Assembly (NCBI GenBank): GCA_036785375.1
Contig: JAWMAR010000882.1
Span: forward strand, 1 to 64,000
Direction: 5' to 3'
Source of the DNA: Leucoraja ocellata
Lineage: Eukaryota
DNA length: 64,000 nucleotides
Part shown: piece after piece, positions 6,001 through 64,000 of the stretch
How the letters are laid out: the number at the start of each line of letters is the position of its first letter
Numbering within the stretch: the first letter of the stretch is position 1
The notes under the pieces: generated by a model
The model's input: the letters and a program-made list of their open reading frames with translations, nothing else
The model's database searches: none
Told to the model about the DNA's origin: nothing
Program-made: the position numbers and the translations under genes

Positions 6001-9000
6001 AATGATCCATTGTTACACCGTGTCCAAATAACCAGGTAAATTTACATATGAAAAAAAGATACGCTTTATAGTATGCACGTGCACAATTTGTACTCAAAAG
6101 GTAAACATACAATTTAGCTTTGTATTACCGTCTGTTCAACATACGGCCTGCCATCTTTGGGTGGGACTAAGTTATGATCCTGATTGCCCACTAAGGTAAA
6201 TATCAATGATATTTTGGGATATTTCAAATGACAGCAGGTAAGATCAATCCAATATCTTGAAACAATATTTATTCCTTAAGCAAACTCACTGAAATTTTAC
6301 CAGGATGTTATATTGTTTTGAATAAACTTGCATACACATACACTGTAGGTATTCTGAGCATAGCAGGGTGCACAAACAAATGAGGGGTTGGCAAGTTTGT
6401 CTTTTATTGTCATAAACAGCGTAGCTTCTTGCTACTTTTCATGAACTGTTTCCATCATGCTTCAAAAGAACAATGTGCTGGGATAACCAAGGTCCCAAGG
6501 AAAGAGTTATAAACTTAAATCGTTATTTTACACTTCCATCTAGCTGTTTTTTGTTTGAAGAGAGACACAAAATGCTGGAGTAACTCAGTGGGTCAGGCAT
6601 CATTTCTGGTTGTTTTTTCATTTATACACACAGATCTCTGACGCATTTAACCTCTGCTTCACTTTTTATCCTGAAAAATCCCAATTCTAGGCTTATGTCA
6701 AAAAGCTAAACAGGTTTCTCATGTGTACCTCTGTGTACTAAACTCAAGAGCTGCCACTTACCCTGTAGAGAGCCTCCACTTGTAGATCTTGAAAGAGTGA
6801 CGTCAACAGTTTGATAGCATGATTTGCCAGAACCACAGACAAAATGCCAAATCCTTGATGTCTGCAGGAAAGGAAGTCAGACCAATGTCAACCTTTTTAT
6901 TGAACTACACGAGGCCAACGGTTTGAAACATTTTGGACTATCCAGGCACTAGACAATGCAGACAGAATTTTAACAAGATGGGTAAGCTAGGACTATATTC
7001 CCTGGAGTGTTGGAGGCTGAGGGGTGATCTTATAGAGATGTATAAAATCATAAGGGGAAAAGATAGGGTAAATGCACAGACACTTTGACCCAGAGTAGGA
7101 GAATCAAAAACCAGAGGACATAGGTTTACAGTGAGAGGAGAAATATTTAACAGGAAACTGAGCAGTAACATTTTCACACAGATGGCAGTGGGTATATGGC
7201 CAAGCTGCCAGAGGAGGTAGTTCAGGCAGATGTACTACTGCATCATTTAAAAATACATTTGAACAGGTAAATGGATAGGAACGGTTGAGAGGGATGTGAG
7301 CCAAACGTGGGACGCTGGGTCTAGCATACATGGGGCATCTTGGTCGGCATGGCAAGTTGAGTTGAAGGGCCTGTTTCCGTGTCCTGCTGTCCTGTTCCAG
7401 ATACAAATATGAACTTGCCTGGACCATTAGTATTAAAAAGCAAAGATAACATTGAATTTTTTTATAAAACCTAACACTGAGAACCCAAGATTAAAAAAAA
7501 CCTCATCATGCCAGAGAGGAAATTTGGATGCCTGGAAAAGCACTGCCAGTGCTGGCCCACGGTTTAGGCAGATACAATAGTGGCATTTGAGGTAGGCACA
7601 TGAATATATGCAGGGAATGGAGGGATATAGATCATGTGCAGACAAATGAGGTTAGTTTATCTTGGCATTAGGTTCGGCACAAGCATTGTACATCAAAGGA
7701 TCTGTTCCACTGCTCTACTCTTCTATGTTCTATTGAGCAATAGAAAAATAAATTGGTTTATGTGAATTTTGCCAATGTTTTGATTTTTCAAAATTTACTG
7801 ATTTTATTTGGAACTGAGAGAAGGAAAAAAAAAGCAAAATGAGTGTCAAATCATTGTTACTGACTGGAAGTAGAACCCAAGGAGTTTATTGCACAATCAA
7901 CCTCTTTCGAGAAACTCTAGTACATTATCCATCGATTATTCCCTCACCCTTTAACAGGCGCTAATTTGGGCGACCCAGCTCCTTCTTTCGCACGAGCAGC
8001 AATGTCACGGACTCGAAGTGCAGCCAGTGGGTCTTTCTCTTTCCCCTTGTCAGCCAGCGCTGCAGGACTAAGGTTCAGGATCAAGTAGAGGCTGTTTAGA
8101 AGGCACCAGGCACCCAATAATTGGAAGTTTTGATAATGCTGGGGAGAAAGTACAAAAAAAAAATGTTTTATAACTGGCAACAGATAAAATATTTTCAACA
8201 TTTTGCTTTCAAAACATATAAATACTTTACATATTTCAGTCAGGACAGCATCCCATTTGTTTCATTCAAATCTTTCAGCTGTTCCATAGCAAAGAATATC
8301 TTTAGATAAATTGCAAATAATGCCGCAAGGCATTTCCTTCTATACATTTACAGTTGCTACGTGTAATATTAATTTCCATCCTCAATGCTCTCTCAGCAAA
8401 ATACTCTGAACCTGTGATACATAATGCATTGTTCAGTTTAACGAGCAACTAGTAAATGAAACCACAAGTATAAAGCCGTGTTTGCTCCATTATTGTCATA
8501 CACTCAGAGGACAAAATTACTGGCTTGATAACCTATACATATCGAACTGAGACAATCGGTTGACAGGTCGACATAAGTGCTGGAGAAACTCGGCGGGTGC
8601 AGCAGCATCTATGGAGCGAAGGAAATAGGCAATGTTTCGGGCCGAAACCAAAGGTTTCGGCCCGAAACGTTGCCTATTTCCTTCGCTCCATAGATGCTGC
8701 TGCACCCGCCGAGTTTCTCCAGCACTTTTGTCTACCTTCGATTTTCCAGCATCTGCAGTTCCTTCTTAAACAATCGGTTGACAGACTGGGAACATACAAG
8801 AGGATTGCAGAACATTTCCATCAGTACACTGCAATAGAGCAGAATCTATGGGATTATTATGAATCTATTTCAATAATATCTCCTTCCTCTGACTTCCACG
8901 TTAATTAAAGTAAGAACTCCAAGGGCCAGAGCATCAATCTGCCAACGCACACCATCTGGTCTCGGACACAATGCTCTCATGTCTGAGTCCAGTTTGTTAT

Positions 9001-12000
9001 TAGGCAAGTCTTCTGGAGTTTCCAATCTCGCACTGTCATTGAACCTGCATCATCCAGATTGTGCATGGAATTCAATTGAACTTGTGACACAGGGTTTGAT
9101 ATCCGGGGACTAACATTAGCAATTAGTACAGGACAGCTGTACAGCACAGGAACAGGCCCTTTGGCCCGTGAGATCTGTGATGAACGAGATTAATTCAACC
9201 AAATTAAACTACAATTCTGACCTATCCAACCGACTAATGCCTTTCATAATTTTGTCTCCCCTCAACCACAAATATTCCAGAGGGAAATAATCTAAGTCTG
9301 TCCATTCTCTCCTCATAACCATTGCACTCCAATCCAGGCCGCATCTTGATGGACTTCTTTATACCCTCATTATTCTTGTAATTGGATGCTAAGAGCCAGA
9401 CAATACTCCAAATACAGCTAAACCAAAGTTTTAGGGCTGCAACATGACTTCCTGATTCTTGTGCTGAAATGCCCCAACCAATGAAGCATACCAAACGTAC
9501 TACAGAGACATCTTACCTCCCCACCTGCGCGTCGTGAGCTGTTAATTGCTTGACCGATCATGTCATAAATTTCCAACTGCAATAGTAAATGAAATATTAA
9601 TTTAGTGCTGCATTCAAGCAATCAGGAAATGCCTTATATACATCCATATCACACCCGCAGAGCCAGAACGTGGAGAAGGAGGAGGACAATGGCAAGATGA
9701 TTCATACCTTGAGTTCTACGGCTTACAGCAAAACATGTTATATAGCTGAATGACAACCCCGTTGTTGATGCTTTAAATTATTAACAAATAGCATGGTTCC
9801 TAACTAAACCAAGTTGAACAAAAACTGAAAATTGTCAGAATTAGAATATATCCTGCAGAAAGGTTCAAGACGTGCTTTTAGCATAGTCCTTTAATCTCTT
9901 AACCTGCTCAGATCCAGTTAGCCATAATAACTACGTGAATTTATCTTGTAGCAGTTCCAATGCAGCAGATTTGAAACATACAAAAGGACTGCCCTCATCC
10001 AACTTGACAGGACAAGCATGTGAAAAAAAACTTCATAAAGAAACAAAACTCCTGAAGAAGAAGGCACTGGAGATCCAAGGATGATCTTGCAACTACTTGA
10101 GAAAGTACATTCTGGGAATCAGGACTGTGACATAGCAGCACACAGGATGGCACTAGGAATCGCAACAGCCATCCTAGTAAGTGCCTCACAAACCACCCAC
10201 CTGCCCGTACCATGAGGCACTTAGACTAGCCCAAAATGTCTGTGGTTCCCACAATGGCCTCGTCAGTCACCTCAGAACCGAAGGAGGAAAAGTCCTCCTT
10301 GATGCCAAGGGACTGCTTAAGACAATGACAACTCAAATGCCTGCATGAAATTGGGATTCTCCTCAACATATTCCCTGATTGATCACTATCTTATTCTAAC
10401 CAGCATCTGGCTTGGCAGAGTAACACACTCGCTTTTATCTGAACAACATTAACACCACGAAAACAAAAACAAATCGAATTTATCCCCGAGTGCTTGCATT
10501 ATTCCAAAGATTAATTGCAATACTTTAAAATACATCTCGTCATACAGCACTTACACATTTCTGTACAATTGTAGCTGCATCATTTTCATAGTCTTCATCT
10601 TTACTGGTAGATCCAGATCGAACTTGCAAGCTACTGCCCACGTGTAGAATAGCCATGCATGTCGCAACACTCACTCCTAGTGAAAGAATACTAGAAATTA
10701 ACCATTTTAAAACATTAAAATCTGATTTAGATTGTATGATTAGAAACCAACTTTATGGCCTTCAAAAGGAAAGCTTAAATAAGAAATCATTTTTATTTAC
10801 TAGGAAAACAAAGGGGGAGCTTTGGGTTATTAACATATAAAAAAAAATCTGCATCAATGGCGGCTAGGATTTTCACGCAAGTATGGGAAGAAATTATGAG
10901 GCCACTGACCATCATTTTTCATCATTCTTTGGATACAGGGGCTGGGCCTGAGAACTGTAGAGTGACAAATATTACATGTCTAACAGTTTAATCTCAAACT
11001 TCTCAGAATCTTTGATTGGGAATTTTATTAAGATTCAACTGGAGGAAATGAATTAATTAATGTAGGAAATACAAGTACAAATCACATTAGATTTGGTTTT
11101 AATGACATGACGAATAAGGTTGATGAGGGTAATGCAGTTGCGTGTGAGCTTACAAAAGGCATTTTGATAAGGTGCTCATTAGTAAAGATGAGGCTCCTGG
11201 CATAAAAATGAAATTGAGAGCATGAACACTAAGTTGTCGTAGTAACAGATAACAGATTGTTGTCAATGCTTGTTCAATAATGCACCAGGGAAGATGAATA
11301 ATGATACTCCACAGGAAGCTGTGCTCGAACCATCGCCTTTTCTGATCCAAGACATAAGTATGCAAAGCACAATTTCTAAATTTGCAGATGACACAAATAT
11401 TGGCAGTATTGCAAAAAGGCAATTGATAAAATTGCAGCATTTTCTAGCTAGGCTGGAAAAATGGCTTATGAAAGATGATGTTTTAATGAAAATAAATGTT
11501 AGTTGATTCATTTTTACTGAGGAAACTGAGCAACAATATAAAGGATATTGTACTAAAAGGCATGCAGGAACTGCTGGACCAGTGGACAGGGTTGACATCA
11601 TTAAACTTGGCAAAGCAGATGAAGAAATAAGGCACATGTACTTCTAGGCATCATGAACTGAGACAAAGTATAAAGGAAGGGATGTTATGCATTAAGAAAG
11701 AAAGATCTTTATCACTGGTCCACACTCAACTGTGCTCCTGATCACTGCATCTGGAAGGATGTGATGGCATTAGATAAGGTTCAGGAGAGATTTATGAAAA
11801 TTGTTCCAGGAATAAGAAACTAAAGTATAAAGGATAGATTGGAGGCTCTGAATATGTTCTGTAGGGAAGAGGCTGAGGAAGACCTGACAGAAATGATGAG
11901 ATCCGGATAGGGTTGATAATGTTCCTGTGGTTGAAGGGTCAAAGATTAGATACAGGTATGAAATATTGACATGGGGTGCTTTTTTGCACAGTACATAGTT

Positions 12001-15000
12001 GAAATCTGTAGGTTCGGAATTGGCAGATTCCACCAAGGCCCTCAAGAGGCAGCTGGATAAATTTTATGGGGAGGGAAAATTGTCAAAGCTGTAGAGAAAA
12101 GGCAGGGTGGGGTAGAATTTGTGAGCTGCCTGGTAGAGAGCGGGCAGGGGAATAATGGACCAAATTGCTCCATCTGTGCTATAACCATTCTATGATTATA
12201 ACATGCATGACAACTGAAAGAAAATTAACATGAAATGTTAACAAAATAACCACATTGCTCAATATATAATCCTATTGACAAAGAACATTGGGTATGGTTT
12301 CTACCAGACCTACTTTCACAATTCCTCTCATGAAAATGACATTTAAAAGGACACATTCACTTTAATCTGCTGTTTCCCAGCCTTGGAAAGACATTTTATT
12401 TGTTCGTATACAGACCTGCATATAAACAACTCAGTGCTAATACAGTCACATCCTGTAATCTTTCAGGGGTCAGGGGCTCAAGAACAGGCAACGAGAGCGT
12501 GTCCAGTGCCATGGTAACGTCAATAACCAAGGAGTGGAATCTGAAGATATAGCGTTAAAAGAGAATATTTAGAAAACAATGTATGGGAGAAATCAAACAT
12601 CACACCCCGCTAGTGTTTAAAAAGACATGTGGATCAGTCAAATTTCTACCCAGAGCAAATTAACCATTCAAAATGTATTACCCGAGACACAAACGTGATA
12701 ATTTGCCTCACATCAATCAATACGTTTTAACCAATGACATGAAAATTGAAAGTCTCTCATCAGTCCCCACTGAATGTTTACAACTCACCCATTCCGTACT
12801 GCAGTTGCGTCTGCAACTGTAGCAGGCATAATGAAAAAGGAGTTGGCAGAGACAGCATCTTGGAAACGGTTAATATATCGCAGGAAGTAGGGAAGGTTTA
12901 AGCAGACCCGCAACAGCTTCTCAGAGCCTCCTGCAAAATGTCAAGTAAATATTCTTCCTTTAACATCAAGTTAAATGCAAACAAGATCGAGCACAGGCAA
13001 ATGAACCAACCGCAATGATGCAAGAGCATATTCTAAGTATGTTTGGCTTTAACATAAAGTAAAACGAACATGTTAATTATCATGAACTGGAGATATTAAT
13101 TATCATATACGCAGTGAGAGCAGAGCCACTAAGGAAGATACTTTGAAAACAGAAACTGCAGCATAAAGACTGAAAACAGCAAATACTACATATTTATTTG
13201 AAGGGAAAAGATAAGCATGACTATAAATCTGTTAGCCTCATATTTATAGCAGAAAATAATGGTTCAGATCAGGCAAAATAGACTAACATAAGGGCCACAA
13301 ATATGGCTTTGTAGAGCACAAATTCAGTCCTATTTCTTAATTGCACTGAACAAGGTGAAAATTGTGCATATGTTCACGTAGGGTTTCGGCCCGAAACGTT
13401 GCTTATTTCCTTCGCTCCATAGATGCTGCTGCACCCGCTGAGTTTCTCCAGCTTTTTTGTGTAACCTACATATATAAAACAACATTGGCCCCAGCACAGG
13501 TCATTCCAATATATACTTCCCAACTCCAAGCCAACATTCAATTCATTCAGTTACTTGGACCTCGACTCTTATATGCAATGCCTCTCTTCTTGGTAATGTC
13601 TTTACAAACCACCTCCGACTTTCTTTTAAATGCAGCTCCGCTAGGTCCCCCATACCATATTGTCCACCAGTCACTCTCTACTCTTCTCATATCAGTCTCA
13701 CCCGACAGTTGTGTTCTTCACTAAATTACCCAAATGTTTCTCAGCCCATGTGTAAAAATATATCGATTCTACAGTCTGATTCTGGGTTAGTGACATGCAT
13801 GCTTCAAGTGTGGCAACAAGTTCACCAAAATACACATGCAGTCCCAAAACTCAAATAGACAACAACAGTATTTAGTTTGTTCGATAATCATTTTAAATTT
13901 ATGGAATCATTATTTACCCAACAGCTTTTTGGATGTGGAGTAAGTAACACATGATTAAGGGTCAAAAACGACTATCATTCCTGACTGAAAACAGCATTTA
14001 GTTAACCAACAAGCCCAATTGGTCTGAAGAAGGGTCTCGGCCCAAAGCGTTGTCTATTTACTTCGCTCCATAGATGCTGCCTCACCCGCTGAGTTTCTCC
14101 AGCATTTTTGTCTACCTTCGATTTTCCAGCATCTGCAGTTCCTTCTCAAACAGCCCAATTAATTTGCTATTTTTAACGTCTGTAAGCAAGTTTAACGTCT
14201 ATAAGTTTATGTAACATTTGTCATCACATTTGTTATAGGAACGACTCAAATTGCTTTAAAATAATAACATTCCACTGCAGCTCTCTTTAGGGTGAAGTTT
14301 TCACATTTAAACTCACCCAATGCTTGTAAACTGGACACATTCTGTGCAATGAATGCGTTTTTCATCTTGGTAACTGTTGCTTGATCTGTTACAGTCTGGT
14401 CATCACTTTCTCCATCCACCTGACAAATTAAAAAAGATACTCAAAATTCACATGAAGAAGATAAGCTGTGCAGCTGCACCAGTCTGTGTTGGAGTTTAAT
14501 TCCCCACTAATGCCAACCACTCTCTCTCTCGTATGTCATGTTTTCAACTACTTGTTCTAACTATTTGCAGAACTAGTAAAGGACAGATTAAAATAGATGA
14601 AATCAACAGATTAAAAATAATATCTTTGGGTAAAAATCCTTATATTTTCACCTTGAACCTAGATTCCCATCTAGGCTTAACTGACACTTAATAGCCACTT
14701 AGAAAATAAAATGGAGATTATGATTGCAATCAACAGCTTCTTGCAGATACACAGCTACATCATGATACAGGTAATAATTCAGTCATAACTCACAATAAAT
14801 TGGTCAATTGAACTATTCAAAACATTAAGGCGGGTAACTCAAAAAGCAGTGATGTTCTTATTTGAAACAAAAATCCTGGATTTGCTGATACGGGTGAATA
14901 GAATTAAAAAACAAATCAATAAGTGATAGAACGGGTGTAAGGGGCAGAATGGTTTCTTTTTATTCGTATACAAAAGAAAAGGTTTACCAGATTATATTTA

Positions 15001-18000
15001 ATCTGCAAGTAGCTTCATATAATCAAGGAGAGTGAAATAGAGGGAATGTGTTGTTTCACAACGTACGTGTTGTTTCATTTTTTTTTTTAATTTAAAAAAA
15101 AAAAAAAAAAATTGGAGATGGTCATGTGTTCCATCAAATAAAGATCTAACAGAAGTCCCCTACTCTAGTCAGAAACAATTTCCTTAAGTAACTGCATCCT
15201 AAAATAACCCAAATCAAAATCCTATTATTTTACGATTGTTGACATGGGATAAAAAGTGCAGAATTCATTTACCTGAGTCGCAGTAGATGGAGCAGATGAG
15301 TTTGATACATCTGGGTTGAAAACAGAAGTCAGCTGGTTCAAGAAGTTCATTTGCACTTCTTTTTGTCGTAGTTCAGGTGTCAATGGAGAGACGGTGTCTT
15401 TTTGATCTTCCACTGGATAAATAAATTATTTTATTGGAATTAAGCATAACAAAACCATCAATGATTCAGACTGTTACAGCCATACAGCATGGAATCAGGC
15501 CCCTGGACTCAACTTGCTCAAGCTAACCAATATATCCCATCTAAGCTAGTCCCAATAGCATTTGTTTGGCCCATATCCCTAGTCTGAAGAAGGGTCTTGA
15601 CCCGAAACGTCACCCATTTGTTCAATCCAGAGATGCTGCGTTGAGTTACTCCAGCATTTTGTGTCTATCTTTCCTATCCAAGTGTTTATTCAAACCTGCC
15701 TCAACTACCTCCTCTGGCAGCTCGTTCCATATACCCATCACACTCTGAGTGAAAAGGTTATCCTTCAGGTTCTCATTAAATCTTTCTCCTCTCACCGTAA
15801 GCCTCTGCCCGCTAGTTCTCGATTCCCCTACCCTCGGAAATAGGCTCTGCCTATACCCATCATTCATTTATTCTTCTCTATAAGCTTCTTGCGCTCCAAG
15901 GGATAAAGTCCTAGCCTGCCTAACCTCTCAAATCTTGGAAAGATCCTTGTCAAATCTTCTCTGCACTTTTTCCAGCTTAATAACATCCTTCCTATAGCAG
16001 GGTGCTCAAAACTGAACACAGTACTCCAAATGCGACCTCAGCTGAACACCAAGGATTTCGTGGAAATTGGGTAACAGCAACAAGATAAACAGCTGAGATT
16101 AACATTCAAAAGGCTTACCATCTGAGAGAGTCTTTACTGTCATCGGAAGTTTGGCTGACTTCATCATCGCTGTAAATGTAATGATCTCAGTCCTGTCCAG
16201 TCGGCTGCAGCCAGTGCACAAGCCCTTGATCAATAGGATCAAGTGTTTCTGAGGAAGAAGTATGACAATCAAACAATAGTTGAAAAGTAGAAAACATTGT
16301 AAAACGCATCAATTTTAAGGTGGTTTCTGAAAGTAGCAAGAACATCTGCTATAATTTTTAGAGTTACAGTATGACTTTTTATATCCTTGCATTTTTTAAG
16401 TAGCAAGATGAAACAGGAAGCGGGCCAATTTTAAAAAAATCCGTATTTTACAAAGCAAATCCGTACATCCGTATTCTTATCGCATTTCCATACAAAATAC
16501 GGTAAATCCGTACTGCTTGGCAGCTCTGTAAGCACCAAACAATTTTCACACAGCATGGTGTGTATTTCACTGGATGTATCTGTTCTTGTTACAGCTAGTT
16601 AATAGTTGTTTGGAGCATGAGAAGAACTTGTTATGAGAAAATAAAAGATCTTGGACGCTCATCCAGAGAGAGGTAAAGCTTTAATTTAACACCATTTCTA
16701 AAAGAATTTCCCTTCCAACAAATGTTGCTATTGAGTGTTTGCGTGTTACATTATTGAGCCATGGAATGGGATTTGATCCATTGGAGAGGTGAACCCTAGG
16801 AGAGGTGATGAACCCATCATTGACTATCCAGCCCAAACACCAATGAAAAAATTAAAGAAGAATGAGGAGAAAGGGGAGATTGAATCCTACTTTGTTAGAT
16901 AATGAATATTCATCAGAGAAGTCCATACAATTAAACCAGTCCGAAGAGTAAAGTCATTACCTGTGAAACAGCACATGCTTCATCTGGATTCTCGAGACGC
17001 ATTAATGAAAATTCAATCAGGATTTTACATGCGGCAGTAACAGACAGCAATTGGTTCCTAGGAACTAGAAATATTGGAAGAGTTGGCAACAAATACAATA
17101 AATTTCCAAAACATTAACTATTTAAGGTATTAAAAAGCAAATAAATTAAACTAGCATGGAAACCTTCAGAAACTCTTTAAGTAGGACAAACTAGGAAGCT
17201 TTCAAGGCAACGAGAAGGCAAACGACTGCCATCTGTGCTGCATAATTCAATGATTCAGTCATACCACACAAGACATGGTAATATACCCACACGCCCATGG
17301 GTCATTCAAAATCTAATCAGTAACAGTAAAAGGGTGTTGATGTGTTGAAAGTGGCAAACTGAACCTGGTCAAATGCCTTGAATTTTATCAGAACATTTCC
17401 TCACTCACAAGTCAAGGTGCCCCAAAATCTACAACTCCATCTCTGGAGCTTAAATCCAGCCCAGATCAAACTACAAGGAGTCCAATCTCCCCATGCTGAC
17501 AACCATTACAATTCTTTATGAAATGTATTAAAATATTAACCGACAATAGATTTGATCAAAAATACTCACTTTGTGTACAGACTGTTGAGATGTAATGTGC
17601 AGACAACGCCACAAATGAAGAGTAGAACGGTTCATAATGTTTGTCATGATGTAGAATCTCCTTCTCACTGAAAGACAAAACAAATAACTCAGAAACTTTA
17701 AAAGCAAGTACATATTAATCCAGCATAAATGTTACAGCATTTTCATCCATGTTAAAAACAGAAATGCTGCTGATACTCAACAGGACAAGCTTCACCTTTT
17801 GAACAGAAACATTATTAATGTTTCAAATAAAAGGGAATCAGTGAGGGGGGACTCGCATGCAAGTCAGGGGAAGAGGGCACTTACAAATTATCAAATCCTA
17901 AATGGTGCTGGGATTTCCCCAATGGAATCCACCAACAGGCTTTGCTGAACCTCCATAATAAATGGCTACACTGGAGTGAAAAGAACAGCTATTGTCAGTT

Positions 18001-21000
18001 CTCTTGCAGCAACACTTCCGCCCATGTCTGGATCGGGAATTTGATGAAATGTGGAGCTGAGTGAATCACGGAAGAACTCAACTGAGCACGAGTTAGAACG
18101 TCATTGGTGAGTGGCTGCCTTATGACATCACAGTTGGTGGTTTTTCGGTTAATGTTTTGGAGTGGGTACAGAAGGCAGTCATTTCTCCGGCGGCAGAACC
18201 AACAAACCGCAAAACCAAACCTTGTTTGGTGCCAGAATGTACGACTACAGAGTTTTGCTTACTCTCCATGAGATAGATTGAATGTTTTTTCCTTGTTTGT
18301 TCTCACAGTTAAATTGTGTTCAACTCAAACCAATTCAAGTTCAACTGACTCTGCCTGTGATGCATGATATGAAGTGTTAAGATAGTCTGTTTTCTCTATA
18401 ATTTCTCTGCATCCATGAACATGAAGATGTATAGATACCCAGGGATAATATACAAATATGGCCAGTTTGAGTAGCTGACTGCATCCCCCCCTTGATAACC
18501 TATTGTAAATTTTAAAATTTTGAGACTTTGGTACATTGTACATTCCATCTGTGCTTATACGCAATAAAAAAATTCCTTCGTCCTTAACTGGGAAGTTATT
18601 TTCATCTTTGACAACCTGTTATCATGAACTGTGAAGGAAAGCATCTTCAGACAACAGCTGCTAGAGCTGCTACCTCATAGCGCCAGAGGTACAGGTTCGA
18701 ACCTGCCCTCGGGTGCTGTCTTTCAGGAGTTTGCATGTTTTCCGTGTGATCATACAGGTTTCCTCCCACATCCTAAAGATGTGTGGGTTTGTAGGTTAAT
18801 TGGCCTCTGTACATTGTCCCTCGTGTGTCGGGAGTGGATGCAAAAGTGGGTTAATGTTCAACTAGTGTGATCGGATGATTGATGGCGGCGTGAACTCGGT
18901 GGGCCAAAGGGGCTGTTTCCATGCTGTATCTTTCAATCAATTTAATCAAAAAGAGAGACAGAAGAGCAAACATCATTTGGTTTTGCACATCCCCAAATCG
19001 CTGTAGGAATTTCCCAGCGTCCCCTGGATAAAATGGACACTAGAATTAGGCAGACAATGGTGCAGCTCGCAGAGTCACTGTTCAGTTTAGTTTATTCTCA
19101 CGAGTACCGAAATACAGTGAAAAGCTTTCACAGTGCCAGAGATCTGGACTCAATCCTGACGTCTGATCCTGTCTGTGTGATGAATGCACATTCTCCATGA
19201 CCAAATGAGCCTCCACTGATGCTCCGGTTCCCCCCCACCCCCCATCCTATCCCATTCCAATGCCATGCAGGATTAGTAGTATAATAGTAAAATGTCTCCA
19301 TTACCTAAGTTAGTGGAAGAATCTGGACAGAGTTAAAGAGAACTGGAGAGAATAAAAATAGAATTTATGTCATATTAGTGCAAATGGGTGTTTGATGGTC
19401 AGTGCAGACAGTGAACTGATGGCCCCAGATGCATGCTTCTTGTCTCTATGATTCTGCAAGGAGGAAAAGTCAAAGGCCAGTGTCTTGCTGAAAAACAGGC
19501 TACAAATCAGGAATAATATGAATTAACCTGAAGCTAATTAAAATAGGTATGCAAGGTGCAGAAGTCATCTGTAAAATTTGGGAATGTCAATTGGATTTTT
19601 GATGGAAACATTTCCTGAGAGGATTTAGAGTGAAAGGCAGACGAGTTGGAATCAACAAGACAGGTGATAACCTGCCAAAGCATCTGCCCAGTGTGCATGT
19701 GTACATACCTCTGGCGAGTCAGAAGAATCTACGAGGCTACATCCGCTAAGACAACAAGCTAACCCTTCCCCCCCCCCCCCCCCCCCCACCTCAGCATACT
19801 TCTAGCCAACGTTCAATCACTCGAGGACAAACTTGAAGACCTCAGAACAAGACTGCTGTTCCACAGGGATATCAGAGACAGCCATGTTTCACTGAAACAT
19901 GGCTCAGCCTTGATACTCTTGATACACGGTTTTCTCTAATTTTAGTACGAACAGCATGCAATATTCAGACATAATGAAAACGGGGTATCTGCTTTATTGT
20001 CGATGTTTCGTGGTACACTGATGTGACGGCCCTAGGTAATTTCTGCTCCTCTGCTCTGGAACAACTGATTATGAAATGCCATCCCTCTAATCCACCATGG
20101 GAATTCACTTCGACCATCTTGTCAGCAGTCTACACAGCACCCAAATCCAACAGCAAGATGAATTGTACTCGGTCATCAATTATTTTGAGATAGCAAACCC
20201 TCACACCCGATTCATCATCACTCGCAACTTCAATTGGGCACACCTCAGGAATGCAATCCCCAAATACCATCAGCATGTCTACTTCTGAACTTGGGGTGTT
20301 AACACTCTAGACCATTGCAATACCACCATCAAATACGCCTATCGCTCCATCCCCCTTCCTCATTTTGGCCAGTCTGATCATCGGTCAGTACTGCTCTTGC
20401 CGGTTATAGAGGGAGAATGAGGCACGAGGCACCAACGATGAGAGTAATGCAGCAGCGGTCAGAGGGGGAAGATTTAAAGAAAATGCACAGGACATTTTTT
20501 TTTGTTTGTTTTCACAGTGAGTGGTCGGTTCCTTAAATCTGCTGCCTGGGGTGGTGGAAGAAGCTGATATGGTAGTAGGCTTTTGAAAAGGCACATGAAT
20601 ATGCAGGGAATGGAGGGATATGGGTCACATAAGGAATTAGTTTAATCAGGCATTATGTTTGGCATTATAGGTCGAAGTGCCTGTCCCTGCACTACACTGT
20701 TTACCCCATAAATTCATTTGCAGTAATGTTACCATCCTGTATTAACATTAATAATATATCCTTTAAAAAAAAGGTTGTACTGAAAATTAGTGAATAAGAT
20801 CAGACAGCCCAACTTTACTCCTGTTGCCCTGCTAATCAAGTCCTGTGCAGTACGTTGTCTAGCATTGGAATTTAGAAGGATGATGGGGTACATTGAAACT
20901 GAAAGGCCTGGATAATGTGAATGTGGTGAGGATGTTTCCACGAGTGGGAGATCTACGACCAGAGGGCACAGCCTCAGAATAAAACGATGCACGTTTAGAA

Positions 21001-27930: not shown

Positions 27931-54537
<26,607 letters not shown>

Positions 54538-55035: not shown

Positions 55036-58000
55036 ATGCCGCGATCCCGGCGGGACAAGCGGGGTAAGAGCGCGGCCCAGACACCACCGATGCCGGACTC
55101 GTGAGCGGAGTGTTGGGGGAACTGTGAGCACAGATGCAGTGGCGCAGCGGGTAGAGACCAAAGATCCTAGAGTGCTCTAGGATCTTTGCCTGAGACCCCG
55201 CAGGGTTCGATCCCGACCTCGGCTGTTGTCTTGTATGTGTGTGGAGTTAGCACTGGGTTTCCTTCAGGTGTTCCGGTTTCCTCCAACATCCCAAAGTTTC
55301 GGCCCGAAACTTTTTTCTATTTCCTTCGCTCCATAGATGCTGCTGCACCCGCTGAGTTTCTCCAGCTTTTTTGTGTACCTTCCCAAAGATGTACGTGGTT
55401 TGTAGGTTAACTACTAGGCTAATCCATTTCTCGAATGGATGAGAAACTAATGTGCTTAAGAAGGAACTGCAGATGCTGGAGAAACTCAGCGGGTGCAGCA
55501 GCATCTATGGAGCGAAGGAAATAGGCAACATTTCGGGCCGAAACCCTTCTTCAAACTAATGTGAACTGGTTGATCGATGGTCGGCGTGGGCATAAGGTTT
55601 ACATGCCGTATCTCAAACTAAAAGATGTATCAGGACGACCCAACGATCTGAAGAATAATTTTACAAAATAAGAAAGATTCAACCAAAATTAAATCAGATT
55701 TTTATTTGGTCTCTGTTGGTAATCGTCGTTGTTTTTTGAATATCTTTCATGTATTTGTTCTATGTACCTTCAATGTTTCTCTTTCCCATGACTCGCAGTC
55801 TGAAGAAGGGCCTTGACCCAAATGTCACCCTTTTCTCCTAAGATACTGCCCAACCCACCAGCTTTTTGTGTCTCTCTTCTATCTGGTCTCTAAGTCTGTT
55901 GATTAAATCGCTGTATTAACTCAATACTTTTTTTATTTCTCCAGTTTCTTTGACCAAAACAACTAAGAAACGATTACAGGTCAAACAGAACTTAATCGAG
56001 GAGGTGAGTCTACAATCAATAGGCACCAATCAGACCGCTCCTATTAATATTCTCTGTTTTTATCCTCGTGCCACATACTAGGTTCCTGGGCGTCTCTCCT
56101 GTGGAAATGGCTCTCCACCCGCTTCTCATTCTTGCCCTCACTGCTTACAGAAACAAATTCAGCCAGCATATTTTGTCGTTGGTTGAAACTAGTTTAAAAA
56201 TATGTGAATACAATGATGTCGAATAGTTCCCACAACAGTTGATCTTAAAGTAAATTAACAACTATGTACATGATGTATCCTTTTAAAATATACACTAAAG
56301 AAAATATACTAAATGTTTTCCTCTTTCCCCATCCCCAGCTCTGAACCTCCTTGTCATTCTTCATCACCCTGACTCCATCTCCATGTATGTATTGCAGCTC
56401 TAAAAACCTCATAAATCAAGCACCCCCCCCCCCCACCACTCAATTGCATCATAGCAAAAACACGTAAATACAATTTTTGGAATTGTAAGGTGCTGTTGTT
56501 TAAGATTCATTATTATTTCTTCAACATTTCAGATAAAATCTCGAAAATGCTGCCAACATAGTTTGTTTTTCTTGTTACTGACACTTGTTTGCAATTTTTT
56601 TTAAGTTACGAAAATGTGTCGACATGTACACAAACCTCTTTGTCTTTTCTGTTGAGAACATGAGAAATAACAAACTGAAGGATATGCGATGTGCCTGGAA
56701 ACACAGCCGGTGAGATCCTATAGTTTTTTTTTTCCTTAATGATACTGGATGATTAATTAAGTTGCTTAACATGGGAACCATGTGTTGGTTAGCTCATTTG
56801 TCATGTAGAGGATGAATCAAATTAAACTATTCAGTCCCCTTGGGCATATTCTGCCGTTCAGTTCCATCATAGCTGATCTGTGTCGACAACACACCAAATT
56901 TAGGGACTATACTTGCATGTTTGGTTTTTCATCCAATTGTAACCAGAGAATCATCGAAATGTTCCCGTGCATGTACAATTTTCTTTTTGAGCCTTCCTGG
57001 GATTGATGTTTGACTCCCATGCCCATATCTTATCTGCATCCTGTTCCTTAGCAATATCATCAAATGCATGATGATTTTCTACATGTATGCTGGTGACCCT
57101 CAACTCCACACACGCTTGACCCTTTTGTCTAATTTCTTGCATGACATCCAGTAGTTGATGAGAATAAAGGCCATCTTCCATGTTGCATCATTCATGTAAT
57201 TCTGAGCTGTTTCTTCATGCCCATTTTCAACTTTCATTGCTTACCCCGTTTGATACTCTACGAGGCTATATTAAAGCCTGTTTAAATTAGATTAATTCCA
57301 TTTATTTACCTTCTATAACATGTTAGATTATTAAGTTGGTTAATCAATCTGTTTTCTAAATCTCTATGCCCCTTCTTAATTCCTAGATCACTATTAAAAC
57401 TCAAATGTAATTAACTCTTACATCGTATGTCTTCATGTTTCCCCACAATTAATTTTATTTACCGTAACTTTCTCTTTCCATCTATTTTAAGCCACTAAAA
57501 TGATTGTCGACAAACTTGCATGTAGTGGCTTCCTACTTCAATTTTTATGTTGAGAAACCAAGTGCCCAATACAGTCAGTTCCCTGAGGCCTTCCATCTCC
57601 TAGGTTTAGGTTTACTATTATCATGTGTAATGAGGTTCATGAAAAGCTTTGCATTGCATGCTAATCAATTCTCTATAACTATGCTGGAGTTTACCTGTCA
57701 ATTCTGTGATCATACTAATGTGATTTAGTTTAGTTTAAGGATACAGTGCGGAAACCGACCTTTCGTCCCACTGACCAGCGATCCCCCCAACTTTAACCCT
57801 CTCCTACAAACACTGGGGACAATTTACACTTATACCAAGCCAATTAATGTACAAACCTGAGAGATACAAAAAGCTGGAGTAACTCAGCGGGACATTATGT
57901 ATTTGGATTGTGGGAGGAAACCAAAGTTCTCGGAGAAAACCCACGCGGTCACGGGGATAATGTACAAACTCTGTATAGACAGTGCCAGTAGTTGGGATCG

Positions 58001-60224
58001 AACCCGAATCTCTGGCGCTGTAAGGCAGCAAATCTACCTCTGCAGCTCCGTAATCTATGTTTCTATAAGCTCTCTTTTATGCCCCTATGTAAAAGATTTC
58101 AAGATATTTTCTGTTGTACTTGTGCAGGTTCTTCTTGGGTAAAAATAAAGTGATGGTGGTGGCTCTGGGAAAAGGATCAGCAGATGAATATAAGGATGGT
58201 TTACACAAGGTGAGCTCTTGGCAACTGCCCGTGTACTGAATTGTTCAATGTATTTTGGCAGTACAATGGGTAAAGCTTTGAGGTTGATGGGGTTTATTTT
58301 TGTCATTTGTCACCCTAAAACTTCTCTATGACCTGTTGTATGTTTGGAGCAGCGTTTCTCAAACTTTTTACCCTTGCGGAACCCTTGAAATAATTTTGAT
58401 GTCTCGGGGAACCCCAATATAAAAATTATCTATCTTTATTAATCTCTTTCTCTTTCATAGTTCATAAGGCAAACATAATATCTTTTTCTGATAACTGGTT
58501 TAAGTAAAAAATAACTTGCGTTTTTCTCAAGCTTATTGACAATGGGGGGAAAAATAGAATCATACTGCTTGTTCAAAACTGAAGCAAATAAAGGCAAACA
58601 GAAGAACTAACCTTGGACGAGAGAGGGAGAGAAAACAACACACAAACTTTTTATAAACTAACAAAAGCATACATAAATAAACTTGATCAACTAACAAAAA
58701 TAAACAAACATACTTAAATAAATGTTTTAAATTCATATTATGGGTAAAAATTACTAAATAACGTGGGCGAATGAGGGACTGTGCCTGCACGCCACAGCCA
58801 GGGCTGATGGAGACCGTGCTTGCGCCTGTACTTGAGTGAGTCACTTGATAATACACAAATCCGTCACGTACAGCCCCTGACCACTAATGGCCGTTTCACA
58901 TGCAGTCTCACTACCTTACTTATGAAACCGTATAGCCATTGCAAAATATGCCATACGTGTATAATAAAATTACAAATATGAAATTAAACACAAAAATGAC
59001 TCAAAGATGCATTTACATATGATTAAAGGTAGACAAAATGCCGGAGTAACGCAGTGAGTGAGGCAGCATCTATGAGTAGGAATGGGCGACGTTTCGGGTC
59101 GAGACCGTTCTGCAGACTGATGTCGGGAGGGGATGGCAAAAAAATAATATTTCTCTCGGAGCACCTAGCGACCTCTCGCGGAACCCTAACGTTCCGGGGA
59201 ACCCTGGTTGAGAAACGTTGGTTTGGAGCATCAGCAATATTTGACATTGTCTCAAAAATGATCTTCCCTTTGTAGGTCAGTGCACAGCTAGAAGGTGAAG
59301 TTGGTCTCCTGTTCACTGATCGCACAAAGGCAGAGGTGATTGAGTAAGTTTCTTGATTTTCTTACTTTCTTTGACATACAATGTGCTTGTGTTCTTTTAT
59401 CGTGCCTCTGCCAACGCGCTCTCCACATCTTGATCAACAGGTGGTTTGCTCAGTACTCGGAATCTGATTTTGCACGGTCTGGGAACAAAGCTACGATGGC
59501 CATTACACTTGACGCTGGGCCACTACCACAATTCACTCACTCCATGGAGCCACAATTACGGAAACTTGGTTTACCGACCACGCTGAAGAAAGGTGCAGAA
59601 ATGATAACAATTACCCCTTTGCCAAGTATTTGATGAAGTTGATTATTTGATTAAAGATGTCAATTCATGTGATTGTCTTCTAGGTGTCGTGACATTGTTG
59701 AGTGATTATGACGTATGTAAAGAAGGTGCCTCACTGACACCCGAGCAAACACGCCTACTGGTTAGTACTATTATTTCAAATTTTGGCTTTTAATTTGTGG
59801 AATTACCACACCAGAAGGCTGAAAACCATGAATGAGGTGAACCCGAGGGATCTTTAATTTAGTTTTTAGTTTAATTGAGGGTGGGGTCTTTCACAAATCT
59901 GTCTACAATAATCTCATTCGGTTATAGTATTCACCAAAACACCAGCGCTTCTGCACCCACCCATTAAGATAACACACCAATATGTAGAAAAATGTGTCTT
60001 CCAAGTACAGAACATTTCTAAATGTTGAGCAACATTTGAGCAACCAAACACTAAATAATACTGGAATTAGGAAGTTTTCAAGACTTTTGTACTATTTGGT
60101 TGTCTTCTAGAAACTCCTTGGTATTGAGATGGCCACATTCAAAGTGACAATAAACTGCCTGTGGAATTCCAAGACTGGTGAATTTGAACAACTTGCTGTG
60201 AGTGATGATGGAAAAAGCAAATAA
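55036..60224 (+). CDS. MRTO4: mRNA turnover protein 4 homolog (60S ribosome assembly factor), 8 coding exons
   Basis: Exons 55036-55063 (MPRSRRDKR), 55945-56003, 56606-56709 ([15 protein letters not shown]), 58128-58209 (FFLGKNKVM), 59276-59343, 59441-59592 ([16 protein letters not shown]), 59684-59760, 60111-60224 (TAA). AATAAA at 60351-60356. Confidence 0.97.
55135..55620 (+). mobile_element. V-SINE with three nested insertions (30 bp palindrome, two Penelope termini)
   Basis: Penelope pieces at 55297-55380 (TSD TCCCAAAG) and 55455-55552 (TSD AAACTAATGTG). Confidence 0.75.
55159..55188. mobile_element. 30-bp TIR-only palindrome of the same family
   Basis: CAAAGATCCTAGAG-TG-CTCTAGGATCTTTG, perfect 14-bp arms. 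Confidence 0.65.
57725..58050 (-). mobile_element. V-SINE (HE1-like)
   Basis: Reverse complement of head, core and tail. Confidence 0.7.
58350..59220. mobile_element. Non-autonomous hAT (Charlie-like) DNA transposon with a nested Penelope piece at about 59028-59135
   Basis: TIRs CAGCGTTTCTCAA / TTGAGAAACGTTG, subterminal GGAACCC repeats, perfect 8-bp TSD GTTTGGAG (58342-58349, 59221-59228). Confidence 0.9.
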
Positions 60225-60929
60225 GTGGCAGAGATGGATGACTAGCAGGGAATTCAAGGGTTTTGTCCTATGCTTGACCTGTTAAAGTGACTGAACAATA
60301 CTATACACGAGAGAAGAATTTGTGGAAACCAACATCATTGCAACTTTTCTAATAAAAATGTTGAAACATAACAGACTTTTGGTTGAATCTCACCAAGTGA
60401 AGTAATAATGGTGAATTGACTTTTGTACTGGCATCTGGGTAATTTAACAATGAAACATGTCATTGATTATATAAAGATAATCTCTTCAATGCATTTGAGG
60501 ACTTTGCACCCAATGGATGCTTCTGAAATATAGTCAGTTGTAAGAAGCAACTAACGTGGACAACAATATACTATGGTCAGAAAGCAAAATGGGAAGACTT
60601 GTCCTTGAGTGATCTATCAATGTCCTTGTAATAATGAGCCAGATAGGACCTCCAAAGGTACAATGTTCCATCTATAACAATTGAGTTCCACTTTTCAACA
60701 AAATGCCAGTCACATTTGTGCTCCAATCCTGAATGTGTGCTATATATGAATGAGTCATAACAGCCTTAATATCAATTTTCTACTATGTATGTATGACCAA
60801 TCACTATCATTAGAAGTTTTTTAATCCACATGCAATGCCAGGTAGCATTTGTACACTTTACTCCACAACTGAAGGGGTTATAGTGATACTGTACATTCAG
60901 GAAAGCAGGTGCACAGTTGACCTGTGTCA

Positions 60930-61210
60930 GGATTCACAGTGGCAGTGGTAAACGTGCCATCTCACAGTCAGTGTCCAGGGTTCAATCCTGACCTTGTGTT
61001 GTCTCTACAGAATTTGTACCTTCTCCCTTTGACAATGCCCGTTTTCTCCAGGTGCCCCGGTTTACTCCCACACTCCAAAGACATGCAGGTTTGTAGGTTA
61101 ATTGGCTTCTGGAAATTATCTCTAGTGTGTAGGAGTGAAATAGTGTACCAGTGATCGTTGGTTGGCGTGAGCCAAAGGGCCTGTTTCCAAGCTATATCTG
61201 TAAAGTCTAA
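60930..61210 (+). mobile_element. V-SINE (HE1-like)
   Basis: Head GGTTCAATCC, V core, tail GGGCCTGTTTCC. Confidence 0.7.
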
Positions 61211-62190
61211 ATCTCAAAGGGGTGAACTATAGATTTGAACAAACTGCGCAAAATAATATCACTACTTTCTGTGTATTGATCCGGTTTGAGTGAATCATCC
61301 TAGTAGGAATGAGAAAACAACTGATATCAAATGCAAAAAGGAATCAATTGTTTTTATTCAAGCAAACAAAGCAAATATAATGTGTTGCCAACAAGGCTGG
61401 GATGCTACGTGATTTTAGATTACAGATCCCAGCCAGCCAATCCTTATTCTGTCATTTTTCAAAGCAGCTCAGCAACATCCAAGGGTCAAGACACTTGAAC
61501 ATAACCCACTGCTATCAGGCTCCTTAAACTACACTCAGCTCATGGAATGTATTCCCTTTACCAGGTTATACTTGACTTTTTTAATTCCTATTTCAATTCG
61601 TGGTCCATGTTAACTGACATGGCATCCACCTGCCATGTCTCAACATTCGCTCAGTAAACTGAGCCCTTGGCTGGAGGTGGAGCATGTGACCTGACCCACC
61701 TCAGCTTGATTGATGGTGTATTTTCCTTTGGCAATGATTCTCAACTATCCCCATTTTAGGGGCAAGAGTTCAAACCAAGGCAAAAACTATTGGTGAGAAA
61801 ATTACAATTTCCAAGCTGCCAGCTGGGAACTGAAATGTCACAAAAACTATTAAGGTCACTGTCTTAATTTAAATTGCCCCAGAAATCTGGTAAACGAAGA
61901 TATGAGCATATAATGTGCACAACATCTCTTCCCACTCACCACCCCAATCCACGTTGATCTAGATTGAACCAGAGACCCCATTGTTTTCCGGTGTGCAGTG
62001 TGCTGACAAGGCTTGGCTGGGCTGGATTACTGATCAACAGAATCGCCTGGCAATGCAAAGGCTGGGCAGCTCCATCTCCCAGCACTAAGGGGCATCATCA
62101 GTGAGTGGAAGGTGGCTGGCTCAGTAAATGGCAGGCTACTCCACTGATCCAGACACCTTCCAAATTAAAACAATTGTAAGTACTCCTGTA

Positions 62191-62330
62191 GGTAGACACA
62201 AATTGCTGGAGTAACTCAGAGGGTGAGGCAGCATCTATGGAGAGAAGGAATGGGTGACGTTTCGGGTTGAGACGCTTCTTCAGACTGATGTCGGGGGTGG
62301 GGGTGGGGATGGGGAAAGATAGAAAGTAGG
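62191..62330 (-). mobile_element. Penelope terminal repeat
   Basis: Reverse complement of the CTGAAGAAG..CCCGAAACGTCACCCATTCC..GATGCTGCC..CTCCAGC family. Confidence 0.75.
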
Positions 62331-62452
62331 CATAAATATGTAGTGCAGTCTCACTACCTTGCTTATGAAGCAAGAAAACTATAGAGCACAAATCAAAGCC
62401 ACTGTTATATTGCAAAGACAATATAGATCCTACTTCTTGATGAAGAACCAGA

Positions 62453-62985
62453 GATGTGACTTAAGAAGACAAATAGATGAACAACAGAAAAGGCTTAAAC
62501 GATGCAAAGCATGGTTATATAAATGTATGACAATGAGTAAAAAGCTGCTAATAGAAAAGTCTAAACAAGAGCGCTTGTCGGTCGAGACAAAAATATGCAG
62601 GACCAATTGCGACTAGGACACTTCACTACAGTCCAGCATGGAGCCTCCTTCACTGAGCAAAGAACAGATGGTTATGCATTTCAGAATCTTGTTAAACAAC
62701 AAGAGCGGATAAATACGCAGCGCGAGGAAATTGTGCGACAGAGGAAGCTGCTAGCAAAAAAAAAACCTGCAGCCATGTGTCAGATGCCACCTACAAATAA
62801 TGAACAGAAACAGGAAAACAAAGCATATGAAGCAGAAAATGAAATGTGAACTTTAGCAGAATATCAGTAACAGGAAGAAATCTTCAAATTAAGATAAGGA
62901 CATTTAAAAAGGGAAGAGGCAGAGATACGGGCAGAGCTAGAGCGATTAGAGAGTTTGCAATTTACACAGGGAACGGAAAATTATA
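62453..62985 (+). pseudogene. TLK2: Processed tousled-like kinase (TLK2-like) fragment, coiled-coil region
   Basis: [25 protein letters not shown] / [82 protein letters not shown]; no introns, with frameshifts and stops. Confidence 0.9.
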
Positions 62986-63244
62986 ACACAAAGCAAGGGG
63001 TAATGTATTTGGTTTAAGGAAGATGGGTGGAACGAAAAAATTATGTGCTAAGTTTAGATATGATTATTACAGCTATGAGGATGTATTGTAAGATTAGTTC
63101 AATAATACAATTTTGCAACAGTGTATTAATCAATTATATTTCAGGTAAAGAGTATATACCGTGAAGGTGAAATTGAGCTACCTGCCACCAAGTTAAAAGG
63201 GGAGGAGTGCTATGTATGAAATAGAAATTGTGTTACCTGCCTCC

Positions 63245-63420
63245 AAGTTAAAGGGGGAGGAGTGTTATGTGTGAAATATAATTAACATATTTGATGTCTT
63301 GCATAATGATACGCATGCGCAGGAGAGACTCTAGGTGGCGTTCAGAATAAAGAAGCTTGTTAGTTAACTCCCGTGTCCGAGTTTTATTTAAAGTCCGTTA
63401 CCAGCACCAAATACACAACA
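63245..63420 (+). mobile_element. LTR retrotransposon 3' end: polypurine tract plus 158 bp LTR (63263-63420)
   Basis: AAGTTAAAGGGGGAGGAG directly followed by TGTTATGT...ACACAACA (TGTT/AACA termini) with an internal AATAAA; the PPT block is tandemly duplicated at about 63178-63228. Confidence 0.7.
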
Positions 63421-64000
63421 AGGGGATAGAATCTTGACAGGAGGTAGGGTGGGAAGAAGTGTAGTCAAGATACCTATGGGAGTCAATAGGTTTGTAGTTG
63501 ATGTCGGTCAATAGTCTGCTGCCTGCTTAGGAGACGGTGAGATCTAGAAACGGTAGGGAGATGTCGGAAATGGTCCAGGTGAATTTGAGTGCCGGGTGGA
63601 AATTAGTGGCGAAGTGGATGATCAGTCTGATTATGGGTCTCGACCCGAAATGTCACCCATTCCTTCACTCCATAGATGCTGCCTCACCCGCTGAGTTTTC
63701 CAGCTTTTTGTGTACCTTTGATTTTTCCAGCATCTGCAGTTCTTTCGTAAACAAGTGGATGAAGTCAGTGAGTTCTGCATGGGTGCAGAGGTAGCACCAA
63801 TGCAGTCGTCAATGGAGCGGAGGTAGAGTTTGGGGACAGGGCCAGTGTGTGCCTGGAACAAGGATTGTTCGACGTACCCTACAAAGAGGCAGGCGTAGCT
63901 GGGCCCATGCGAGTGCCCATAGCTACGCCTTGGATTTGGAGGAAATGGGAAGAATCAAAGAAGAAGTTGTTATGGGTAAGGAGCTGCTCTGCTAGGTGGA
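63421..64000 (-). mobile_element. Penelope-like element reverse transcriptase fragment (degenerate)
   Basis: Minus translation [78 protein letters not shown] gives PLE RT motifs (YIDD mutated to SIDD); interrupted at 63622-63752. Confidence 0.9.
63622..63752 (+). mobile_element. Short Penelope-terminus element inserted into the Penelope RT
   Basis: Same repeat family as the other copies; TSD AAGTGGATGA at 63612-63621 and 63753-63762. Confidence 0.85.

Follow-up and report, generated by a model that had tools for sequence, protein, structure and literature searches.

The cassette at 62339 to 63420 of the window, the whole 64,000-nt stretch of Leucoraja ocellata DNA analysed here (contig JAWMAR010000882.1, assembly GCA_036785375.1), is probably a 5′-deleted, decayed member of a skate family of non-autonomous LTR retrotransposons, an LTR-mediated chimera of two host transcripts. 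The copy in the window most likely lacks a protein function. The DNA of the window is that of a vertebrate, with a GC content of about 40%. An earlier note on this DNA had proposed an LTR element carrying fragments of two host mRNAs; this reading was supported in its main part, and for the IQ fragment, which is 120 nt long, the mRNA origin is not readable. The cassette and its flanks comprise the following features.

62190 to 62330, minus strand: Penelope-like 3′ terminal repeat, the left flank, joined to the cassette by deletion
62331 to 62338, no strand: 8 nt at the deletion junction matching neither flank, from the X1 contigs
62339 to 62458, plus strand: IQ-repeat gene piece, most likely ASPM, with two IQ motifs at 23-residue spacing and a frameshift near 62382
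62455 to 62458, plus strand: 4-nt overlap (TGTG) common to both parents, the putative template-switch point
62455 to 62990, plus strand: TLK2 coiled-coil piece by its match to PDB 5o0y, intronless and decayed, kinase domain absent, 3′ end approximate
62990 to 63168, plus strand: the element's AT-rich 3′ internal region (30% GC), lacking a poly(A) and common to many contigs
63169 to 63278, plus strand: 55-bp tandem duplication found by TRF, with two polypurine tracts (PPTs; 63195-63207 and 63250-63262) and the start of the LTR
63263 to 63420, plus strand: 3′ LTR of 158 bp, TGTTAT...ACAACA, with AATAAA at 63346
63421 to 64000, minus strand: Penelope-like reverse transcriptase (RT) region by translation, cut exactly by the LTR

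Part of the stretch is contained in 20 run entries from 8 studies, with no recorded RNA entry listed; the 4 entries with a small share were set aside. Four runs were aligned to the stretch with matches taken at a likeness of 80, namely X8 from organism A and X10 from organism B, both of DNA type, X1, which we guess to be RNA, and X23, which consists of oligo-dT reads.

When open reading frames of the cassette were compared with PDB, human TLK2 (5o0y) was the sole significant match of both 62344-62616 (E=5e-12) and 62565-62849 (E=1e-37), and on these E values the resemblance to TLK2 is not due to chance. The piece spans human C243 to about residue 420 and ends ahead of the kinase glycine loop (5o0y chain position 295). 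The splice-site variants c.832-1, c.968+1 and c.1121+1, given in the text of PMC5992133 consulted, place the human boundaries c.831/832, c.968/969 and c.1121/1122 at 62560, 62694-6 and 62844-6 of the window, and no DNA lies between the exons; the ruler for this mapping was a mammal-like TLK2 fragment, which agrees with all 7 of the 7 residues named in the variants of the same text. The 5o0y matches and the three human-mapped junctions, which the earlier note had marked for checking and which are crossed without introns, bear out its intronless TLK2 coiled-coil segment; the piece lies where it had been placed, with its true start at 62455 and not at 62453. On the assumption that skate exon positions equal the human ones, the TLK2 piece would derive from a spliced mRNA. 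In-frame stops occur in it at 62847, 62868 and 62895, and frameshifts near 62571-62574 and near 62952; a true TLK2 paralogue was ruled out by the missing kinase domain, the stops and the lack of introns. TLK2 appears preferable to TLK1 as the parent on the PDB match, on the NCBI name of the Leucoraja erinacea protein XP_055497199.1 and on diagnostic residues, which we take to point to TLK2, not TLK1. Residue changes from the mammal-like TLK2 that are common to the window and XP_055497199.1 were counted at 10 of 86 codons, their polarity needing the skate TLK2; five rows are left out of this count (the P0004 start Met, three P0004-specific residues and one double count).

As had been claimed, IQ-like repeats at about 23-aa spacing precede TLK2, and the two motifs align with each other in a self-alignment. 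Their continuity of frame into TLK2 held for the second motif (62380-62454) and failed for the first (VVQSHY..., from 62340), which is set off by the frameshift near 62382. Pfam IQ gave one weak match to the piece, below cutoff (E=0.044), and the Atlas IQ clusters scored 0.91-0.92. A phmmer search with the 37-residue IQ piece against 1.84 billion representatives returned a single match (P0005, E=4.6e-5, 36% identical), an unnamed protein with an ASH domain and 19 IQ stretches, a set of domains that by its composition is the architecture of ASPM. Two X1 contigs further revealed the parent on either side of the piece. A 584-nt contig (record 2, depth 18) matches 62339-62437 at 93 of 99 positions and reads DFLKLKSAAI upstream of VVQSHY, and a 2,270-nt contig (record 5, depth 17.8) matches 62409-62458 at 49 of 50 positions and leaves the window after 62458 into AYLTFRQTVI, both by hand translation. 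Since these contigs run into IQ-like sequence on both sides, the parent of the IQ piece is a cellular multi-IQ gene, and the earlier reading, which was to fall if the IQ part had no cellular-gene match, survived on this point. That this gene is ASPM is likely, not proven, the only profile match being the unnamed ASH and IQ protein; of the tentative ASPM assignment, the IQ-gene parent was confirmed, while no protein named ASPM was retrieved. Searches for the parent among longer proteins returned only XP_055497199.1 (1 of 36 candidates) or nothing; they covered proteins of up to 2000 residues, and full-length vertebrate ASPM is longer. The IQ repeats of human ASPM lie mostly within one 4.7-kb exon, exon 18, according to the consulted portions of PMC10436222 and PMC374243. 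Because the IQ piece crosses no known junction in its 120 nt, it is uninformative as to a spliced-mRNA origin.

The two parents leave the window on opposite sides of TGTG, the TLK2 reads before 62455 and the IQ contig after 62458. In X23, 20 oligo-dT reads match from 62455 on, and their upstream letters read GRIDDLLRAN, which, to judge from RANCDL in the human 5o0y match, is the TLK2 parent. An overlap of at least 4 nt at the joint has a chance of about 0.026 at this composition (about 1 in 40), and the frame of both genes is preserved across the joint. Microsimilarity was found only here (4 nt), as the TLK2/element and element/ASPM points are not readable. In X8 contigs, some copies have an internal tandem duplication of the joint segment at 62395-62508 (62503 to 62341, 62503 to 62395 and 62508 to 62397).

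On the 3′ side, the AT-rich stretch after TLK2 and the lack of a poly(A) tail were as previously described, and no LINE-type target-site duplication (TSD) was found at the gene pieces of this partial copy. The 3′ internal region is multicopy, 21 and 21 contigs having a different letter at position 63033, and X10 contigs that join 62950 to 63102 (39 letters on the short side) and to 63048 link TLK2 to the 3′ region elsewhere. TRF reported a period of 55, 2.0 copies and an 89% match at 63169-63278; what had been called a duplicated PPT does contain two PPTs, and is in fact a tandem duplication of the PPT together with the first ~16 nt of the LTR. The number of 55-bp units differs among copies, whose joints leave out 76-77 nt or jump back by 51-103 nt. 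The LTR directly adjoins a 13-nt purine run. In X8, records 21-24 stop at 63420-63423, and in X10, record 16 covers 63262-63421 and is preceded by 150 unlike letters (a 5′ or solo LTR), while seven contigs run past the LTR into the PBS-like TGGCGACGAG. This 10-mer we take to be complementary to the 3′ end of tRNA-Ser(GCT), a primer binding site (PBS). Given that other copies end at the same bases with different flanks, the TG..CA unit of 158 bp is a genuine LTR, and the recurrence of its boundaries in independent contigs corroborated the LTR originally proposed. The TG..CA LTR, the adjacent PPT and the putative PBS behind some LTRs together point to the end of an LTR retrotransposon. The window holds no second LTR, so this copy has no 5′ LTR, as the earlier note had also seen. 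No gag/pol coding sequence of the element was found in the window or in the matched contigs, and the label 'Gypsy' accordingly rests on the shape of LTR, PPT and PBS. ARAGORN found 0 tRNAs, and BLAST against plasmids gave no match, which is uninformative.

The sequencing runs disclosed numerous other copies. The contig pieces on the cassette numbered 1493 in X8 and 1451 in X10, totals in which Penelope pieces lying on the final 50 bases are counted, and 1181 and 1150 of them, respectively, were less than 95% alike; the identity classes 99+/95-99/90-95/<90 held 108/204/663/518 pieces in X8 and 80/221/639/511 in X10. Summed depth, which is not a copy number, was 510-19,488 in every bin of 62332-63211 and 22-27 in the unique left-flank bin. 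With single listed contigs at a depth of 16-55, the cassette would have, as a rough estimate, tens to a few hundred copies. Depth in the PPT/LTR bins (up to 43,933) exceeds that in the internal bins, so that the contigs with the LTR and the PBS may come from relatives that lack the chimera. X8 contigs with ASPM-like letters upstream of 62339 imply that the family reaches further 5′ than the window copy.

The ASPM/TLK2 junction itself recurs. X10 record 9 spans it (62408-62571, 13 differences), and at position 62407, 33 and 27 contigs differ from the window. On a 70.8-Mb contig of L. erinacea, XP_055497199.1 (P0001), a 150-residue annotated open frame across the joint, reads through both IQ motifs and on into the TLK2 piece; its identity to the window is 82% and 74%, and it is the closest named relative of the cassette. 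Although named TLK2, it is likely a mis-annotated copy of the chimera. Its first 23 residues look by eye like a translated pyrimidine-rich repeat, and as the gene model is partial, its start may be another exon; a reading of this start as a second Penelope flank was dropped on the same ground. These junctions suggest that several loci carry the same fusion through secondary retroposition. The joint common to XP_055497199.1 and X10 record 9, together with the linkage of TLK2 to the 3′ region elsewhere, vindicated the earlier surmise of a family.

Alternatively, a retrocopy and then an LTR fragment might have inserted independently and later been multiplied as a segmental or satellite duplication. 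Some copies do carry internal tandem duplications and deletions, and no two-LTR copy was seen among the listed records; among the 24 of 2,994 pieces listed, neither a chimera between two LTRs nor a record spanning the whole stretch was found. Against this account, the left flank has single-copy depth and the cassette is at least 19-fold deeper, the contigs diverge exactly at the LTR ends, and the Penelope frame cut by the LTR is intact in 87-88 contigs per run. The TLK2/LTR adjacency, which as a unique arrangement with its own TSD would have favoured separate insertions, recurs in other copies, and no duplication flanks the gene pieces. We therefore regard independent insertions as very improbable.

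The flanks were assigned to Penelope, presumably correctly, by RT and endonuclease-end motifs that we recognised. The left-flank repeat matches more than 20 places in the window, and at 49255-49560 a copy of it runs on into a frame resembling an endonuclease end, the motif of which we take to be Penelope-like. By pattern search, the repeat contains a minimal hammerhead core (62284-62256, CTGAAGA...GAAAC), and such cores occur in Penelope repeats according to the consulted part of PMC4209133; Rfam over 58000-64000 gave 0 matches. For the right flank, Pfam detected no RT family in four pieces, and Atlas gave a weak lead to RVT_1 (13%). The minus-strand frame of this flank ends ...DSIP at about 63421, and uninterrupted copies continue in frame as YSQFLRLRRI. 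Such an uninterrupted RT frame across 63421 was present in 184 reads (X23) and in 87 and 88 contigs, which shows that the LTR cuts the RT exactly.

Whereas the right piece is RT, the left one consists of the 3′ terminal repeat; the thumb/endonuclease region that would separate them is absent, presumably about 1 kb as judged from Penelope element length. A clean insertion in Penelope was ruled out by this missing region, and one deletion explains the loss of both the Penelope endonuclease region and the 5′ LTR. At the deletion junction, the parent-like X1 record 2 stops matching at 62339, and X1 record 1 (62312-62429) runs through it without a single difference. An assembly artefact was ruled out, since X1 records 1 and 6 cover the outer junctions with 0 differences in 118 and with 6 differences and 4 gaps in 1,040, respectively. 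The description 'nested in Penelope' was hence correct at the 3′ end, its 5′ side being a deletion junction; Penelope pieces do lie on both sides, but the insertion did not simply split the element. At the site of insertion, intact Penelope resembles the end of the left flank over 6 nt (AGTAGG), probably by chance.

Another conceivable account is that the Penelope element itself captured the cassette and moves it, as the pieces have the same orientation on both sides and the start of XP_055497199.1 is, by eye, pyrimidine-rich and repeat-like. The junction bins are single-copy, however, at 63421 the cassette is missing from most Penelope reads and contigs by far, and X8 records 21 and 22 and X10 record 13 leave the window at the LTR end, so that capture by Penelope is extremely improbable.

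Further Penelope-derived structures were observed in the window. The RT region is itself interrupted by a short Penelope-end repeat of opposite orientation, flanked by a target duplication of 10 bp, AAGTGGATGA (63612-63621 and 63753-63762). Just left of the Penelope end, 62106-62162 contains a 20-bp inverted repeat with a 17-nt spacer. The segment 49232-49791 is a near-perfect fold-back of a Penelope 3′ end, a long palindrome with endonuclease end, purine-rich tail and hammerhead core, and head-to-head pairs of this kind are also found at 8565-8781 and 39924-40107.

About 2.1 kb upstream of the cassette lie the last exons of MRTO4 (59340-60225, plus strand; human MRTO4 in PDB, E=6e-21), with the last codon near 60225 by eye. 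In X1, which yielded 24 records, the mass of family copies is absent and both outer junctions (records 1 and 6) are present at a depth of about 10, data that fit transcription of the locus, perhaps by read-through from MRTO4. X23, of which 5% was covered, gave 705 reads on the stretch, 34 of them at ≥99%, with equal mate directions; most come from the parents and other copies. An MRTO4 intron harbours a non-autonomous hAT-like DNA element (58342-59228) with 13-nt terminal inverted repeats (58350-58362 and 59208-59220), an 8-bp target duplication, GTTTGGAG, and a nested Penelope-end repeat at about 59027-59136. Inside this element, 58901-58926 is identical at 25 of 26 nt to the IQ piece at 62344-62369 (43.7 bits), a score reached by none of 300 shuffles (best 32.8); templated capture from the nearby cassette and a relic of another copy are candidate explanations.

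Taken as a retrotransposon chimera, the cassette may have arisen as follows. In the virus-like particle of a Gypsy-type element, RT would have jumped from element RNA to spliced TLK2 mRNA and then, at the 4-nt overlap, to an ASPM-like transcript, so that an in-frame IQ/coiled-coil fusion replaced internal element sequence. The chimeric RNA, which kept the PPT, the LTR and probably the PBS, would have been copied many times in trans, as the multiple copies suggest. One copy landed within the RT region of a Penelope-like element, some 2 kb downstream of MRTO4. A later deletion would have taken the 5′ LTR and the 5′ part of the interior along with the endonuclease region of Penelope, and the frameshifts and stops now visible accumulated.

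Template switching also yields chimeric retrocopies in target-primed reverse transcription. The fusion could thus have been made in two steps, a LINE or Penelope RT producing a chimeric retrocopy that inserted into an LTR element already present, by which it was then amplified; this account departs from the favoured one in the capture and agrees with it on the amplification. The window is very rich in Penelope-like ends, and the TLK2/element boundary is not readable. Yet the gene pieces have neither a poly(A) nor a flanking duplication, and TLK2, truncated within the CDS at both ends, stops ahead of the kinase domain, whereas retrocopies made by LINEs begin at the 3′ end, as stated in the part of PMC5131818 consulted. 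We accordingly consider this two-step origin unlikely.

The mechanism favoured here, LTR-mediated formation of the chimera, is already known. Tan et al. (2016; PMC5131818), in the text available, describe LTR-mediated retroposition with partial mRNAs, microsimilarity, multi-gene chimeras and secondary retroposition in fly, mosquito, zebrafish and chicken as well as mouse and human; that text includes no cartilaginous fish, and the word 'shark' is absent from it. Like the skate cassette, retrocopies in it have at least two parent genes (CG4799_CG11924_r and a four-gene case in mouse) and undergo non-autonomous re-retroposition. The cases cited there have few insertion sites, whereas the skate family has apparently tens or more copies in two organisms, and the two pieces of the skate cassette consist of coding sequence joined in frame. 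Maize Bs1, from three genes, and human HERV-K/FAM8A1, as cited in the same text, are likewise LTR elements with spliced host gene pieces inside; the Bs1 chimera is a retrogene there, while the skate copy is a pseudogene, and hosts and element classes differ. Mag-lineage Gypsy elements have LTRs of 119-304 bp and mostly a tRNA-Ser PBS in the consulted part of PMC3286476, to be compared with the 158-bp LTR and TGGCGACGAG of the skate element; as the latter is known from the shape of its LTR and PBS and by no pol sequence, placement in the Mag lineage is only a lead. Literature on skate and other cartilaginous-fish retrocopies, on little-skate Gypsy elements and on elasmobranch gene capture did not describe the family, most subscription papers and the repeat databases lying outside this scope, and a search for the PBS 10-mer gave nothing related among the titles listed. 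The skate family thus appears to be undescribed in the literature covered.

The Pxyfem retrocopies of Plutella, as far as the consulted text of PMC9674220 goes, resemble the skate cassette in being multicopy partial cDNAs in transposon-rich DNA; the Plutella copies make silencing RNAs against the parent gene. It is quite unlikely that the skate family spread or was co-opted by expressing an IQ/TLK2-coiled-coil protein without a kinase, or through small RNAs that tune the cell-cycle genes ASPM and TLK2. In its favour are the oligo-dT reads of X23 that derive from the family, the assembly of this locus in X1, a run with RNA-like behaviour, and the annotated open frame of L. erinacea. If this were so, the protein is predicted to be calmodulin-binding and possibly a dominant-negative partner of TLK.

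In practical terms, the family creates false 'TLK2' gene models such as XP_055497199.1 and can disturb the mapping of reads to TLK2 and ASPM in skate RNA-seq. As the two parents can be read along with the switch point and numerous descendants, it would be possible to trace in which order the templates were switched and what became of a fusion that joins two genes in frame. An LTR-mediated origin of the cassette would extend LTR-mediated exon shuffling to the cartilaginous fishes.
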